Part shown: positions 40,581-49,202 of the stretch, in pieces
Position numbering within the stretch: position 1 is the first letter of the stretch
Layout: each line of letters begins with the position of its first letter
The notes under the pieces: generated by a model
Told to the model about the DNA's origin: nothing
Database searches by the model: none
What the model saw: the letters and a program-made list of their open reading frames with translations, nothing else
Program-made: the position numbers and the translations under genes
Source: a virus
Lineage: Duplodnaviria; Caudoviricetes
Length of the DNA: 53,366 nucleotides
IMG/VR virus record: IMGVR_UViG_3300025621_001498
Location: 1 to 53,366 of that record
Direction: 5' to 3' (one strand)

Positions 40581-41435
40581 ATGTTCAAGAAGGCAGAACG
40601 CAAGCAGGCCAAGCTACGGCTGGCACTTGCCGGGCCAAGCGGCGCGGGCAAAACCTACTCAGCCCTGCTGATCGCAAAGGGGCTTGGCGGGAAAATCGCC
40701 GTGCTGGATACCGAGAAGGGCAGCGCTTCGCTGTATTCAGACCTGGTCGACTTCGATGTGGTCGACCTGACTGCGCCTTTCACCCCCGAGCGCTATACCG
40801 AAGTGATCACCGCCGCCGAAGCTGCAGGCTATGACACGCTGATCATCGACAGCTACTCGCATGAGTGGACGGGACCGGGTGGCTGCCTGGAAGAAAACGA
40901 GAAACTTGCCCACTCCAAGTTCAAGGGCAACACCTGGGCGGCCTGGAACGAAACCACGCCCCGCCACCGCAAGCTGACCAACAAGATTCTGGGCAGCTCG
41001 CTGCACATCATCTGCACCATGCGCAGCAAGACGGAGACGGTTCAGGGTGAAGGCAAGAAGATCATCAAGCTCGGCATGAAAAGCGAGCAGCGCGATGGCA
41101 CCGATTACGAGTTCACGGTGGTGCTGGATGTTTCGCATGACACGCACGAAGCCGTGGCCAGCAAAGACCGGACGCGCCTGTTCAATGGCTACGAGGTCAT
41201 CACTGAAGAAACCGGCCGCAAGCTGATCGCCTGGCTGAACGGTGGCACTTCGGTGAAGGATCAGCTTGTTGACCTTATCGCCGACATTGCCACGGCCAAG
41301 AATATTGAGGCGTTGCAGTCAGCATTCAGCGCGGCATGTGCCACGGCGCGCGGTGACGATCAATCGCTGGCCAAGATCGTTGAGGCCAAGGACAAGCGCA
41401 AAGCAGAGCTACAACCGCAGCAGGCCAGCGCATGA
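40581..41435 (+). CDS. Sak4-like (AAA_24) single-strand annealing ATPase
   Basis: GPSGAGKT, LDTEKGSA, IIDSYSHEW; upstream of exo and ssb. Confidence 0.8.
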   Translation: MFKKAERKQAKLRLALAGPSGAGKTYSALLIAKGLGGKIAVLDTEKGSASLYSDLVDFDVVDLTAPFTPERYTEVITAAEAAGYDTLIIDSYSHEWTGPGGCLEENEKLAHSKFKGNTWAAWNETTPRHRKLTNKILGSSLHIICTMRSKTETVQGEGKKIIKLGMKSEQRDGTDYEFTVVLDVSHDTHEAVASKDRTRLFNGYEVITEETGRKLIAWLNGGTSVKDQLVDLIADIATAKNIEALQSAFSAACATARGDDQSLAKIVEAKDKRKAELQPQQASA

Positions 41436-42139
41436 AAGCGATCATCTTCGACACCGAAACCACCGGCCCAAACCCAGCGGTCGATCAAGTCATTGAGGCT
41501 GCGTGGCTGGTACTCCCTGGCACGGTTGACGAGTTCGCAGCTCGCCACCCAAACGTGCTGCCGAGTACCTGCCAGCGCTTTAAGCCTTCGATCCCGATCA
41601 CGGTTGGCGCTCAGGCCACGCACCACATCCTCGCGGGCGACCTTGTTGGTTGCCCCGACTATAGCGAGTTCGCTTTGCCGGACGGCGTGACTTATCTGGT
41701 GGGCCATAAAGTTGATTTCGACTGGAGCATGGCCGGCCAGCCTGACGTTAAACGCATCTGCACTCTCGCCCTGAGCCGCTATCTGTTCCCTGATGCCGGC
41801 AGCCACACCCTGAGCGCGATGATGTATCTGTTTGCGCGAATGACCGGGCGGGAGTCGGCGGCGCGCGATGCTCTACGCAATGCCCACGCGGCGCTGGACG
41901 ATGTAATCAACTGCGGGCGAGTGCTGCAGTTCCTGATCCGCCAGGCCAGGGTTGCCGGTCATGTGTGCGGATCATGGGCTGATGTTTACGAGCTGAGTGA
42001 GTTGGCGCGCATACCGCTGGTGATTGGCTTCGGCAAGCACAAGGGAACGGCCATTGCCGATCTTCCCGAGAGCTACAAGACCTGGCTCGCCGCGCAAGAC
42101 AACATCGATCCCTACCTTCTCAAAGCAATCACAGCGTAA
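41432..42139 (+). CDS. DEDDh 3'-5' exonuclease (ExoX-like)
   Basis: FDTETTG, VGHKVDFD, AHAALDD, FGKHKG. Confidence 0.88.
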   Translation: MKAIIFDTETTGPNPAVDQVIEAAWLVLPGTVDEFAARHPNVLPSTCQRFKPSIPITVGAQATHHILAGDLVGCPDYSEFALPDGVTYLVGHKVDFDWSMAGQPDVKRICTLALSRYLFPDAGSHTLSAMMYLFARMTGRESAARDALRNAHAALDDVINCGRVLQFLIRQARVAGHVCGSWADVYELSELARIPLVIGFGKHKGTAIADLPESYKTWLAAQDNIDPYLLKAITA

Positions 42140-42148
42140 GGAGGCCTT

Positions 42149-42631
42149 ATGGCCCGTGGCGTTAACAAAGTCATCCTGGTCGGCACCTGCGGCCAAGACC
42201 CGGAAACCCGCTACATGCCGAATGGCAACGCGGTTACCAACCTGAGCCTGGCCACCAGCGAACAGTGGACCGACAAGCAGACCGGTCAGAAGGTCGAGAA
42301 GACCGAATGGCACCGCGTCTCGCTGTTCGGCAAGGTCGCCGAGATTGCCGGCGAGTACCTGCGCAAAGGCTCCCAGGTATACATCGAGGGCAAGCTGCAG
42401 ACCCGCGAGTGGGAAAAGGACGGCATCAAGCGTTACACCACCGAGATCATCGTCGACATGCAGGGCACCATGCAGCTGCTGGGCGGCAAGCCTGACGGTG
42501 AACGGCCGGCGACGCCACAGTCAGCGCGACATCCTGCGCCCCGTCCTCAGCCAAATCAGCAGGACGCCCCGCCAGACGACTTCGACCAAGATATTCCATT
42601 TGCCCCGCTACACCACCTCGCCGGGGCATAA
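42149..42631 (+). CDS. ssb: Single-stranded DNA-binding protein
   Basis: [16 protein letters not shown] tail. Confidence 0.97.
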
Positions 42632-44246: not shown

Positions 44247-44628
44247 ATGCAGAACGTACTTTATGCCGGCCTGCGTAACCCTGAGCGCGACCAGAACATC
44301 TTCAACGCCCTGGCGGGCAAGTCGATCAGCGAAGTGGCGGAGCTTATGGAGCTGCAGCCGAGCACGGTGCGAGCGGCGCAGAAGCGTATCGCAGCCCTTG
44401 CCACCTTTAACCTCACCCTCACAGGGGGGGGGTAAGGACATCTCGATTGGGCCGGTCGCTGCCAAGTCATTCCGGCGTGCCGCTCTCGGTGCATACCGCC
44501 ACTTTTGCGGCACCTTCCGCAGCCTAGAGCTGAATCAGTGGGCCGTAACGGACGGCACCACAACCATCAGCATCCAAGACCTTCGAGATCTCGACTCGGG
44601 TGTTGCCTCGGTAACCGAGGACGATTAG
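44247..44628 (+). pseudogene. HTH gene interrupted by G9 tract
   Basis: ORF 44247-44435 stops right after G9 (44424-44432); G8 would continue in frame to 44628. Confidence 0.65.
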
Positions 44629-46095: not shown

Positions 46096-46713
46096 ATGAG
46101 CACGAAACGCGACATGATCAAGATCGAAACCCCGGAAGGCTTCAAGCTGTCCGTGCCGGCCCATGTTGTGGCCACCACCTTTATCTCGGCGGCGCTGGCC
46201 CAGGTTGGCGTTGTGCAGCAGGTTTCTGCGCCAGCTCAGCCGCTGAGCGCCCAGGCCATCCCGGCAGTCGGTGAATACTGGCCAGGTCAGGGCGGTATCA
46301 ATGGCGGCGGGGTTGCGGCGCACGGCGATGTGCCGGCCCATTACCTGATCTGGGCGACAGATGATGTCGGCGAGCACGAATGGGGCGGGCGCGGCAAAGA
46401 GTCGGGCGCCATCTGCAAGCGTGACGGCCAGGCCAATACCAAGGCGTTGCTGGCCGAGGGCGATCATCCAGCGGCAATAGCTGCAGTGATCAGTGCCGAT
46501 GGTCACTACGACTTCTACCTGCCGGCTGCAGCAGAGCTTTACCACGGCTGGCTGAACGTGCCGGACATCTTCAAGAAGGATCGCTGGTACTGGTCGAGTT
46601 CGCAGCGCTCCGCCTACCTCGCTTTCTACGTGAACTTCGATGATGGCTATCAGGGCATCTACGCCAAGTACAACGAGTGTCTCGTCCGCCCCGTCCGCAG
46701 AGCATTCATTTGA
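46096..46713 (+). CDS. DGR target 1, C-type-lectin-like (DUF1566-like)
   Basis: FYLPAAAEL, WYWSSS, C-terminal VR ending VRPVRR. Confidence 0.9.
   Translation: MSTKRDMIKIETPEGFKLSVPAHVVATTFISAALAQVGVVQQVSAPAQPLSAQAIPAVGEYWPGQGGINGGGVAAHGDVPAHYLIWATDDVGEHEWGGRGKESGAICKRDGQANTKALLAEGDHPAAIAAVISADGHYDFYLPAAAELYHGWLNVPDIFKKDRWYWSSSQRSAYLAFYVNFDDGYQGIYAKYNECLVRPVRRAFI
46600..46701 (+). repeat. Variable repeat VR1
   Basis: 101/102 identical to TR; one mismatch, 46660 T versus TR adenine 48062. Confidence 0.95.
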
Positions 46714-46730
46714 TCATTTGCTAATTCATT

Positions 46731-46746
46731 CTGGCCGACAGGCCAG
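46731..46746. other. Hairpin downstream of VR1 (retrohoming target signal)
   Basis: CTGGCC-GACA-GGCCAG. Confidence 0.7.
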
Positions 46747-46757
46747 CCGTAACTCAG

Positions 46758-46777
46758 GGCGCAGCAGCGCCTTTTTT
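46758..46777 (+). terminator. Terminator between the two target genes
   Basis: GGCGC-AGCA-GCGCC-TTTTTT. Confidence 0.55.
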
Positions 46778-46803
46778 GTTGCCTTAAAAAAGAGGATGCA
46801 CCC

Positions 46804-47421
46804 ATGCAAGCAGCACAACAGCAGGCCCCTGCGGTAACCATTCCCGAAATCGGCGCACCCTACGGTGGCGGCTTCTTCTCGGGCATCACTGTGCAGGATG
46901 GCAAGCACTACCTGAACATCACCGCCGGCCGTGAGCATGAGCTGGAAGGTGAATGGGGCAATTACGGCGTGAAGATCGAAGGGGCGGACAGCTTCACCGA
47001 CAGCCGCGCCAATACCGAGGCCATGGCCGCAGCCGGTAGCGTACTGGCGCAGCAGGTGCTGGCACTGGATATCGGCGGCTTCACTGACTGGGCGATCCCG
47101 GCCCGCGACGTGCAGGAGCTGCAGTACCGCCACTTCAAGCCAACCGGCCAGCAGAACTACTGCTGGAACCGTGACGGCGACAACCCCAACAGCCTGCCGG
47201 TAGGCAACCTGTACACCGAAGAGTCGCCGGCACAGACCGCGCTGGAGGCCTTCAAGCATGGCGGCGCTGATGCCTTCCAGGGGCGCTGGTACTGGAGCAG
47301 CTCGCAGCGCTCCGCCTACGACGCTTTCTACGTGAACTTCGATGATGGCTATCAGGGCATCACCGCCAAGTACATCGAGTGTCTCGTCCGCCCCGTCCGC
47401 AGCGAGTTGCTCATTGATTAA
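46804..47421 (+). CDS. DGR target 2, C-type-lectin-like (DUF1566-like)
   Basis: DWAIPARD, WYWSSS, C-terminal VR; paralogue of target 1. Confidence 0.9.
   Translation: MQAAQQQAPAVTIPEIGAPYGGGFFSGITVQDGKHYLNITAGREHELEGEWGNYGVKIEGADSFTDSRANTEAMAAAGSVLAQQVLALDIGGFTDWAIPARDVQELQYRHFKPTGQQNYCWNRDGDNPNSLPVGNLYTEESPAQTALEAFKHGGADAFQGRWYWSSSQRSAYDAFYVNFDDGYQGITAKYIECLVRPVRSELLID
47302..47402 (+). repeat. Variable repeat VR2
   Basis: 97/101 identical to TR; mismatches 47363 and 47375 at TR adenines, 47320-21 at TR CT. Confidence 0.95.
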
Positions 47422-47435
47422 TTCGTTCATTTAAT

Positions 47436-47453
47436 CCGGCCGCTTGCGGCCGG
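47436..47453. other. Hairpin downstream of VR2
   Basis: CCGGCCG-CTTG-CGGCCGG. Confidence 0.7.
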
Positions 47454-47473
47454 TGCTTTATGGAAGCCAGCCG

Positions 47474-47830
47474 ATGGCAATGCATACGGATCTGCCGATA
47501 CACAAACTCGCCTTTGATCTGCTCAGTCTTGCCACCGATATCACGCGGAACATTCCGCGCGACTTGAAGGCCGGGCTTGGCGCGAAGGTTCGCGATGAAT
47601 GCATAGAGGTCATGGTGCTGATTGCCAGGGCCAATGCCGCGCGAGACAAGCAGCCGCACCTGGGCTCACTGGTTGAGCGCATCCAGGTGGTTGAGTTCCT
47701 GCTCAGGCTGTTCAAGGAAAAGCGCTTTATCAGCGTTCCGCAGCATGCGGCGGCCATTGAGTTGACCGCCTCCATCGGCAAACAGGCCAATGCCTGGAAA
47801 CGCTACACCGCAACCGCGCCCGCTACTTGA
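47474..47830 (+). CDS. avd: Accessory variability determinant (four-helix bundle)
   Basis: LPIHK.A.DL, IPRDLK..LG, IGKQANAWK; located between targets and TR. Confidence 0.88.
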   Translation: MAMHTDLPIHKLAFDLLSLATDITRNIPRDLKAGLGAKVRDECIEVMVLIARANAARDKQPHLGSLVERIQVVEFLLRLFKEKRFISVPQHAAAIELTASIGKQANAWKRYTATAPAT

Positions 47831-48001
47831 TCGTCACGGCGATCAGGTCTGTGCGATTTGAATCTGGTCGTGCCGCTGGCCAATTGGCCACCGCCATGCG
47901 CATACGAGATACCGCCGGTCTAAAGCGGCCGCGTAGGTCTCGCGCAGTTACCGGGCTGATCGGCTTTGCCTTCGGCTCGGCGACGTAGATAGCACGACAG
48001 G

Positions 48002-48103
48002 TCGCAGCGCTCCGCCTACCTCGCTTTCTACGTGAACTTCGATGATGGCTATCAGGGCATCAACGCCAAGTACAACGAGTGTCTCGTCCGCCCCGTCCGC
48101 AGA
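48002..48103 (+). repeat. Template repeat TR
   Basis: Repeat copy between avd and RT; holds A at three VR-variable positions. Confidence 0.92.
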
Positions 48104-49202
48104 TTCGACTGTTGCACCCTACCCGTTCCGCGACCTGGTCCAGGCCTACTACGACTGCCGGCGCTCCAAGCGCAACAGCGCCAGCGCGCTGGCATTCGAG
48201 GCAGACCTAGAGCGGAACCTCACCAAGCTGCACAGCGACCTGACTGCCGGCACCTACCGGCCAGGCCGCTCCATCTGCTTCGTGGTTACCAGGCCCAAGG
48301 CCAGGGAGGTATGGGCGGCGGACTTCCGAGACCGCATCGTCCACCACCTGCTGTACAACCATGTGGCACCGCGCTTCTACGCCAGCTTCATAGCGGACAG
48401 TTGCGCCTGCATACCCGGGCGCGGCACGTTGTACGCCGCTGAGCGCCTGGAATCGAAGATCCGCAGCATCAGCCAGAACTGGGCGAAGCCGGTCTTCTAC
48501 CTCAAGTGCGACCTAGCCAACTTCTTTGTCGCCATCGACAAGCAGGTGCTGCGCCAGCAGTTGGCAGCGCGCATCACTGAGCCCTGGTGGCAAGCACTGG
48601 CCGAACAGATACTGATGCACGACCCGCGCACCGACTACGAGGTGCGCAGCCCCAACCACCTGTTCAACCGGGTGCCGCAGCACAAGCGCCTGACTGCTCA
48701 GCCTGCGCGGCTGGGTTTGCCGATCGGCAACCTGTCTTCGCAGTTCTTCGCCAACGTGCACCTGGATTCCCTGGACCAGTTCGTAAAACACCGCCTGCGC
48801 TGCAAGCACTACGTGCGCTACGTCGACGACTTCGTGCTGCTGCATGAGTCGCCGCAACAGCTGAACGCCTGGCTGGCCCAGATAGAGGCGTTCCTGCCCT
48901 CGCTGGGCGCGAGGCTCAACCCGACCAAGACCATCCTGCAGCCAGTTGCCCGCGGCGTGGACTTCGTTGGTCACGTCATCAAGCCCTGGCGGCGTACCAC
49001 CCGGAAGCGCTCAGTGGCCCAGGCCATCAAGCGCACCGCCGCAGCACCAGCAGAAGACCTGCGCGAAACCGCCAACAGCTACTTCGGCCTGCTCAGCCAG
49101 GCCAGCCACAGCCAGAAAGACCGCGCCGCCCTGGCGCGCCTGATCCTAAAGCGCGGCCATGCAGTGAATGGTGCGCTGACTAAAACCTATCCGAAGAGGT
49201 GA
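48042..49202 (+). CDS. DGR reverse transcriptase
   Basis: FRDRIVHH, LKCDLANFF, GLPIGNLSSQ, YVRYVDDF, GVDFVG; no maturase or endonuclease tail. Confidence 0.95.
   Translation: MMAIRASTPSTTSVSSAPSADSTVAPYPFRDLVQAYYDCRRSKRNSASALAFEADLERNLTKLHSDLTAGTYRPGRSICFVVTRPKAREVWAADFRDRIVHHLLYNHVAPRFYASFIADSCACIPGRGTLYAAERLESKIRSISQNWAKPVFYLKCDLANFFVAIDKQVLRQQLAARITEPWWQALAEQILMHDPRTDYEVRSPNHLFNRVPQHKRLTAQPARLGLPIGNLSSQFFANVHLDSLDQFVKHRLRCKHYVRYVDDFVLLHESPQQLNAWLAQIEAFLPSLGARLNPTKTILQPVARGVDFVGHVIKPWRRTTRKRSVAQAIKRTAAAPAEDLRETANSYFGLLSQASHSQKDRAALARLILKRGHAVNGALTKTYPKR

Follow-up and report, generated by a model that had tools for sequence, protein, structure and literature searches.

The closest described counterparts of the element analysed here are DGRs of the Bordetella phage BPP-1 type (architecture B; Wu et al. 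2018, PMC5758913), which have the order avd-TR-RT and targets with a C-type-lectin fold. In the available part of PMC3240598, homing is described as leaving the template repeat (TR) unaltered, its directionality being determined by the sequence at the 3′ end of the VR, and DGR models assume a one-way flow of information from an unchanging template. According to the accessible part of a survey of 372 DGRs (PMC5758913), two tandem targets are the commonest multi-target form (50/372). In the same part of that survey, TR/VR mismatches other than A-to-N occur in 86/372 DGRs (23%) and are attributed to atypical incorporation by the reverse transcriptase (RT), integration errors or unrelated mutation.

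Template change has been described in engineered elements. In DGRec-type synthetic systems in E. coli, the template drifts and preferentially loses adenines, and the search space narrows (bioRxiv 10.64898/2026.06.12.731847 and 10.64898/2026.07.21.739853). As far as the available portions of these preprints go, an annealing protein is implicated, recombining cDNA with any homologous sequence, including the TR. For natural DGRs, a full-text literature search, which covered articles rather than the supplements of DGR surveys where A-poor TRs may be listed, returned no description of template erosion or VR-to-TR transfer.

Here we analyse a window of 53,366 nucleotides, a 53-kb provirus record whose relatives are found in Pseudomonas genomes and phages. 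Judged by its sequence, the window appears to carry the DGR of a Pseudomonas prophage as a complete- and intact-looking cassette (46096–49202, + strand). The cassette resembles BPP-1-type DGRs in having an RT, a bAvd protein, a TR beside the RT and VRs at the 3′ ends of the target genes, in the GC-rich 3′ end common to TR and VR, and in the hairpins that follow the VRs. In addition, the family to which it belongs shows the adenine-specific TR/VR differences of that type. It differs from BPP-1-type DGRs in that the RT start codon lies inside the TR. Furthermore, whereas the BPP-1-type TR is described as unchanged in the available part of PMC3240598, the TR of the window has lost 13 adenines and carries a VR haplotype. 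Like the DGRec-type systems, the window encodes an annealing-type recombinase and a single-stranded DNA-binding protein (SSB). However, those systems are engineered plasmids in which, in the portions of the preprints at hand, TR mutation is attributed to cDNA, whereas the window is a natural element whose TR matches a resident VR, which points to DNA copying from VR to TR.

Organisation of the cassette

The DGR consists of two Lcl_C-type target genes, avd, an RT-15 RNA, the TR and the RT gene, in this order and all on the + strand. Target gene 1 (46096–46713, 205 aa) encodes a putative C-terminal Lcl_C/C-type-lectin-like domain that ends in VR1 (46600–46701), and its paralogue, target gene 2 (46804–47421, 205 aa), encodes a putatively Lcl_C-like protein that ends in VR2 (47302–47403). 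The Pfam matches of the two proteins to Lcl_C (PF07603) lie under the gathering cut-off of 34.9 bits, at 26 bits (E = 1.2e-5) for target 1 and 31.4 bits (E = 2.5e-7) for target 2. The accessory variability determinant gene avd (47474–47830, 118 aa) matches bAvd (PF22296) above the cut-off (50.7 bits, E = 2.8e-13). The RT-15 RNA motif (47814–48004; Rfam RF03018) is recovered by its covariance model over the full length (1–192) with 182.9 bits (gathering score 82; E = 7e-46); it is located directly 5′ of the TR and extends into it. The RT gene (48042–49202; Pfam RVT_1, E = 1e-16) encodes YVDD and IGNLSSQ, the latter in keeping with [I/L]GxxxSQ, the signature of DGR RTs. Because the segment at 48002–48103 sits between the RT-15 RNA and the RT, without a coding context of its own, we assign it as the template. 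In the GenBank record of the related phage Cruim01, an RT-15 RNA is likewise annotated 5′ of the TR (L005, 2717–2909), while the RT is named 'retron-type', the targets are hypothetical and the DGR is not annotated as such. In the window, a run of nine G (44424–44432), possibly prone to slippage, is present 5′ of the DGR, at the end of a 62-aa ORF (44247–44435).

In phage BPP-1, target recognition requires a hairpin or cruciform. Each VR of the window is followed by a GC-rich hairpin with a 4-nt loop on the + strand, one with a 6-bp stem 30 nt 3′ of VR1 (46731–46746) and one with a 7-bp stem 33 nt 3′ of VR2 (47436–47453). By analogy with the requirement in BPP-1, both hairpins are candidate target-recognition elements. 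Unlike the two VRs, the TR is followed on its 3′ side by no hairpin and no stable fold (z = +0.76), so that the target-side elements, a GC-rich VR end and a hairpin 3′ of it, are present at the VRs and the hairpin is missing on the TR side.

The sole in-frame start codons of the RT are two adjacent ATGs at 48042–48047, inside the TR (columns 41–46). They are preceded in the RT frame by a TGA at columns 32–34 (48033–48047 corresponds to columns 32–46), and the TR, read in a second frame, supplies the first ~20 codons of the RT. The TGA at columns 32–34 and the ATG at columns 44–46 are kept in 40/42 distinct TRs, and the TR of the window retains both ATGs. A decaying or altered RT was considered as a cause of the low mutagenesis described below and was rejected, as, at columns conserved to at least 95%, the RT of the window carries 4 private substitutions, within the range of 0–9 among 81 RTs. 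The RT carries Y220H (~48759–48761, the residue counted from 48102) in the motif SQFFANV(Y/H)L, at a position where Tyr is invariant in 80/80 relatives (the best 80 of 495).

A recombination module is encoded 5′ of the DGR on the same strand (40581–42631). It is composed of a Sak4-like AAA_24 ATPase (40581–41435; E = 9e-27), whose phage homologues are annotated as RecA-like recombination protein, an RNase_T-type exonuclease (41432–42139; E = 5e-5) and an SSB (42149–42631; E = 8e-37).

The template repeat is eroded at adenines only

The TR (48002–48103) contains 20 adenines and 3 in-frame AAC codons in 102 nt, the same counts as those reported by the first-pass annotation. VR1 differs from it at a single site, 48062 (A in TR, T in VR1; AAC/TAC). 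In VR2, two TR adenines are changed, 48063 (A>C) and 48075 (A>T); its other differences are at codon 7, where 48020–48021 read CT in the TR and GA in VR2 (CTC/GAC), and at the last base, 48103 (A/C). The alignment reproduces the differences that had been noticed at first, one site in VR1 and two adenines plus GAC/CTC in VR2, and adds the last base. VR1 and VR2 differ from each other at 5 bases (hand count, columns 1–101), and from about column 21 on, just three differences are left among the three copies, in AAC codons 21 and 25. Three of the five internal TR/VR differences lie at TR adenines and the other two, in VR2 codon 7, lie elsewhere, numbers that are few for a standalone test.

We compared the TR with those of related elements. 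The comparison set comprises three GenBank phages of the same two-target architecture (SC_8_H2H8_2017, Cruim01 and LPPA56) and 80 IMG/VR loci, the best 80 of 495 found, with RTs 84–97% identical to that of the window. The TRs of all 83 loci (the best 80 of 495 plus the three phages) contain 27–33 A and 6–9 AAC codons. A further 69 loci were retrieved from metagenome and genome collections through the conserved TR 5′ flank, 66 of them with a complete flank-defined TR. Pooling 148 loci, with the more distant LPPA56 left out here and in the column statistics, gave 120 unique cassettes, or 118 after removal of L121 and L103. In these two metagenome loci the conserved TR 5′ flank is followed by a TR that breaks into unrelated sequence, after about 24 nt in L121 and near the 3′ end in L103, as in rearranged or truncated cassettes.

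Among the 118 unique cassettes, TRs with 32 or 33 adenines predominate (54 and 32 cassettes), followed by 31 (11), 30 (5), 29 (10), 28 (3) and 27 (2); one TR, that of L091, has 20. The TR carries 9 AAC codons in 90/118 cassettes, and the consensus TR likewise has 9. The TR of the window, with 20 A, is outside the range of 27–33 A that holds for 117/118 related cassettes, and its 20 A and 3 AAC codons depart from the invariant AAC-rich template characteristic of DGRs. The element derives from a DGR, though one whose template did not remain invariant. The first-pass annotation had anticipated AAC in relatives at the altered codons and had traced both CTC and GAC to AAC; codon 7 is indeed AAC in 116/118 cassettes. 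The contrary outcome, relatives that all carry this same TR, was not observed. An ordinary lineage-specific TR, that is, a phage group that simply has an A-poor template, has nothing in its favour beyond the sequence itself and is at odds with 117/118 unique cassettes as well as with the closest relative, whose TR has 33 A and 9 AAC codons, so we give this explanation practically no weight.

That closest relative among the best 80 of 495, L007, has an RT 97% identical to that of the window, and its TR shares the distinctive TGT CTC near the 3′ end. The two TRs differ at 13 sites, and all of them are adenines in L007 (13/33 A sites versus 0/69 non-A sites; Fisher p = 6.1e-8). Specifically, the eroded sites are 48013, 48017, 48020, 48021, 48025, 48029, 48032, 48050, 48056, 48057, 48060, 48066 and 48071, and they are the sole differences between window and L007 over 47951–48133, whereas the surrounding sequence differs at roughly 3–6 sites per 100 nt. 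The erosion includes a synonymous third-position A (GCA to GCT), which fits adenine mutagenesis and not selection at the protein level. The list of mutated codons in the first-pass annotation holds for the most part, except that TTC (codons 9 and 13) and GGC (codon 16) are scaffold codons in AAC-rich relatives, and that GCT (from GCA), GTG (from ATG) and GCC (from GAC) had been left out.

VR1 has the same base as the TR of the window at 13/13 eroded sites. Because all 13 changes relative to L007 are at adenines and VR1 is identical at every one of them, the TR reads as a VR-type sequence and, on the evidence of these alignments, is a VR-type derivative of an AAC-rich ancestor; the earlier proposal that the TR was overwritten, by mutagenic cDNA or by conversion from VR1, agrees with this result. 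Compared with the L007 TR, VR1 shows 14 A-to-N changes (the 13 sites and 48062) and no change at a non-A base (hand count). As 14 is within the range of 7–21 changes seen in relatives, VR1 resembles what ordinary homing from the ancestral TR would give.

The first-pass annotation had named assembly collapse of the three repeats as the main alternative: the sequence of one repeat would have been threaded through three copies, and the true TR would be AAC-rich. We examined the public run X1, which contains 96% of the sampled cassette words and was available as k=31 contigs from an independent assembler, maybe of the same sample as the window. A 656-nt X1 contig with a depth of 30 spans 47376–48031 with 0 differences and joins the unique RT-15 flank to TR columns 1–30, which hold 6/13 eroded sites. 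A second X1 contig covers 48076–48820, again with 0 differences, and joins TR columns 75 onward to the RT; the k=31 contigs leave TR columns 31–74 unlinked to the TR flanks. Among the differences listed, an A at 48017 is seen in no X1 contig. Runs X2, X3 and X7 contain relatives' sequence only (word shares 0.18–0.20), and there the relatives have A at 48017.

Since a k=31 contig runs from the unique 5′ flank into the first 30 eroded bases, repeat collapse is unlikely, and the AAC-rich TR that would have spoken for an artefact does not appear beside the TR flank in X1. In addition, an AAC-rich TR shares just 11–15 nt with the 5′ side of VR1, too short for the usual k-mer merging, so a k-mer graph would have had nothing to collapse, and the three copies are non-identical, each with distinct flanks. 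What speaks for an artefact is that the three copies are unusually alike, that the sample also contains a second related phage at lower depth, and that columns 31–74 are unlinked to the flanks in the k=31 contigs; taken together, we consider an assembly artefact very improbable. The second phage in X1 has a depth of 5–7 and is represented over the region 46158–49085 by contigs with 16–36 differences. The major-strain contigs of X1 begin exactly at column 75 of VR2 (47376) and of the TR (48076). The start in VR2 fits a minor related strain joining there, while the start in the TR, which the window sequence does not predict, may reflect linkage of the TR flank to a variant base at 48075.

Proposed transfer between the repeats

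The copies in the window are more alike than mutagenic homing leaves them. In 145 TR/VR pairs of relatives, 45.5% of A sites differ, versus 0.5% of non-A sites. The per-column frequencies in relatives, which come from AAC-rich templates and from VRs already through selection, predict about 7.1 changes at the adenines left in the window TR, whereas VR1 has 1 (P = 2.4e-4) and VR2 has 2 (P = 2.5e-3). Consistent with this, 201 related TR/VR pairs have 7–21 changes each, with one exception, in L091, that has 0, and VR1 and VR2 differ at 11–44 bases in 94 relatives versus 5 in the window. These comparisons indicate that at least one pair of the copies is related by non-mutagenic copying at the DNA level. 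In the 3′ part of the repeat (columns 61 and beyond), 2.8 changes are expected and the observed numbers are unexceptional (P = 0.11 for 1 or fewer, P = 0.37 for 2 or fewer), so that this part is compatible with later short-tract homing. According to the available part of bioRxiv 10.64898/2026.06.12.731847, adenine misincorporation is context-dependent and cascading; an A-poor template may mutate less, which would weaken the argument from similarity.

We propose, at a probability of roughly 55%, that the sequence of the element's own VR1 replaced that of the TR in a transfer at the DNA level. We infer the direction and the agent of the transfer, the order of events and any continuing activity from the comparisons above, and the sequence of events would be as follows. 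Mutagenic homing from an AAC-rich, L007-like ancestral TR would first have introduced about 14 A-to-N changes into VR1. By gene conversion, a non-reciprocal homologous recombination for which either host RecA or the phage's own annealing proteins could serve, VR1 would then have been copied into the TR, with the loss of 13/33 adenines and 6/9 AAC codons. This step would have spared the flanks, namely the RT-15 RNA and the region 3′ of the repeat, together with the RT start codon inside the TR, and since flanks and start codon are intact, the element may still work. Finally, VR2 would have taken over the sequence of the new TR, starting at about column 21, and would have kept at codon 7 the older GAC, derived from AAC.

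The same end state would be reached by self-targeting, in which cDNA made from the TR, with mutagenised adenines, inserted back into the TR, for example at the replication fork with the aid of a single-strand annealing protein of the phage; VR1 and VR2 would subsequently have received copies of the new TR. This route is in line with the position of the changes (13/13 at adenines) and with the mutated, adenine-depleted TRs that synthetic DGRs acquire in the presence of an annealing protein, as described in the accessible parts of bioRxiv 10.64898/2026.07.21.739853 and 10.64898/2026.06.12.731847. It also fits the Sak4-like AAA_24, exonuclease and SSB genes of the window and the recurrence in relatives of small erosions at A sites, often in the 3′-most AAC codons, where cDNA integration would begin. 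However, self-targeting calls for an extra copy from TR to VR1 with almost no mutagenesis (1 change where about 7 are expected, and 0 in L091). The TR has gained no target-like sequence, as its 3′ flank is identical to that of L007 up to 48133, and no hairpin is found 3′ of it. Nor is AAA_24 clearly linked with erosion: matches above the cut-off occur in 2/5 partly eroded relatives (L075 and L068) versus 1/10 uneroded ones (L013), a comparison of few records and of AAA_24 only. The proposed help from a Sak4/SSB system is thus borne out as to the presence of the genes at 40581–42631, which are possible helpers of repeat-to-repeat transfer, and not as to a clear link with erosion. On balance, we regard self-targeting as rather unlikely, and the emphasis that the first-pass annotation placed on it gives way to conversion of the TR by VR1.

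Gene conversion is favoured as the shortest account of both the window and L091, since the cDNA route requires the same copy and mis-targeting besides. Against the proposed direction, the outcome would be no different if mis-targeted cDNA had entered the TR and the TR had then been copied into VR1, at the cost of one additional step. The A at 48062 in the TR, where VR1 has T, would reflect either patchy conversion or a later change in VR1. Furthermore, the near-identity of VR2 needs a second transfer, and full-length copies at the DNA level look rare in relatives (1/201 pairs).

Erosion in related elements and its consequences

L091, the other TR with 20 A, appears from its sequence to be an independent parallel, in which the TR and one VR share one sequence with no adenine mutagenesis between them. 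Its TR shows 12 A-to-N changes and no others, and TR and VR1 are identical throughout the 101 columns compared. VR2 of L091 mismatches the TR at 12 non-A sites and, since these mismatches lie at non-adenine sites, is best explained as the older product of an AAC-rich template. L091 is a 6-kb metagenome contig, and on the two sides its VR1 has 27 nt and 29 nt in common with the expected TR, which makes a bubble-popping artefact possible.

Smaller erosions recur in other relatives, some of them isolate genomes, and are confined to adenine sites. The two 3′-most AAC codons are replaced by GAC GAC (L017, L018 and L089), ACC CAC (L043 and L090), TTC AGC (L061) or AGC CAC (L039), and the two 5′-most AAC codons by TAC TAC (L022 and L140); two sites are eroded in L075 and a single site in L068, L105, L134, L151 and L154. 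In several eroded relatives, one VR matches the changed TR while the other mismatches at a now non-A base, which is the situation of VR2 codon 7 in the window. Over columns 16–75, 19/49 non-A TR/VR mismatches are at eroded sites, 12 of these 19 from L091. One Pseudomonas palmensis genome has two cassettes on different contigs (L134 and L154) with the same TR erosion, AAT to TAT at codon 17.

Relatives with one, two or three eroded sites, and VRs still mismatched at a now non-A site as in VR2 codon 7, are what would be expected if adenines were lost in many small patches, by conversion, cDNA or point mutation, with the VRs rewritten at each step. Such a stepwise ratchet predicts intermediates, and the relatives contain none with a subset of the window's 13 changes; of the bases in which the window departs from the consensus, they share at most 4, all of them in the non-eroded TGT CTC. 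In the 66 extra flank-defined TRs, eroded sites are shared with the window not beyond chance. A pattern search for derivatives of the window TR, with N at the remaining adenines, gave 0 matches in the three collections viral_contigs, genome_contigs and metagenome_contigs, from which the window's own genome may have been left out. Nor does the stepwise scheme account for the near-identity of both VRs with the TR at the adenines that remain, and we consider this scheme quite unlikely.

The CTC/GAC mismatch of VR2 belongs to the non-A-to-N class of PMC5758913. In comparison with the causes given in the available part of that survey, the mismatches in the window and in L017, L061, L043 and L039 correspond to a TR changed at a former adenine, with one VR left behind. 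If the overwriting of the window TR by VR1 is real, it provides a simple cause for some non-adenine TR/VR mismatches. It would also mean that templates are imperfectly protected in nature, just as in engineered DGR systems, and against the one-way models the TR would have taken the sequence of its product. For annotation it would serve as a warning, as a TR that is poor in A or identical to a VR can be an eroded one and not a mis-call.

The transfer would show one specific way in which a DGR loses its capacity to diversify, or focuses it. The amino-acid repertoire, calculated on paper, drops from about 10^17 to 10^10.7. Over the columns that vary in relatives, it falls from 10^13.5 to 10^7.1, with 13/26 of these columns still A, 12 of them in counted codons. 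The ratchet suggested by the first-pass annotation, which would fix successful residues and use up diversity, is matched by a loss of diversity on paper, and the fixing of successful residues is conjecture. A bolder reading, in which write-back from VR to TR is a recurrent and possibly selected feature of this family of Pseudomonas prophage DGRs, so that a working haplotype becomes the template and later diversification stays near a proven binding site, strikes us as doubtful. If true, write-back, in which annealing and recombination proteins of the phage itself may take part, would narrow the search space heritably, as a ratchet and not by mere decay, and would explain part of the non-adenine TR/VR mismatches across natural DGRs.

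With the RT start codon positioned within the TR in this family, silencing of the RT is a further possible effect of write-back. In L091, the eroded TR reads GGT GCT, and both RT ATGs and the TGA are lost, which may have frozen that element. As a separate feature of the family, a third VR-like copy is found about 2–5 kb upstream of the cassette in some relatives (L038:86, L045:89, L071:2 and L134:1773) and is probably an extra, non-adjacent target.
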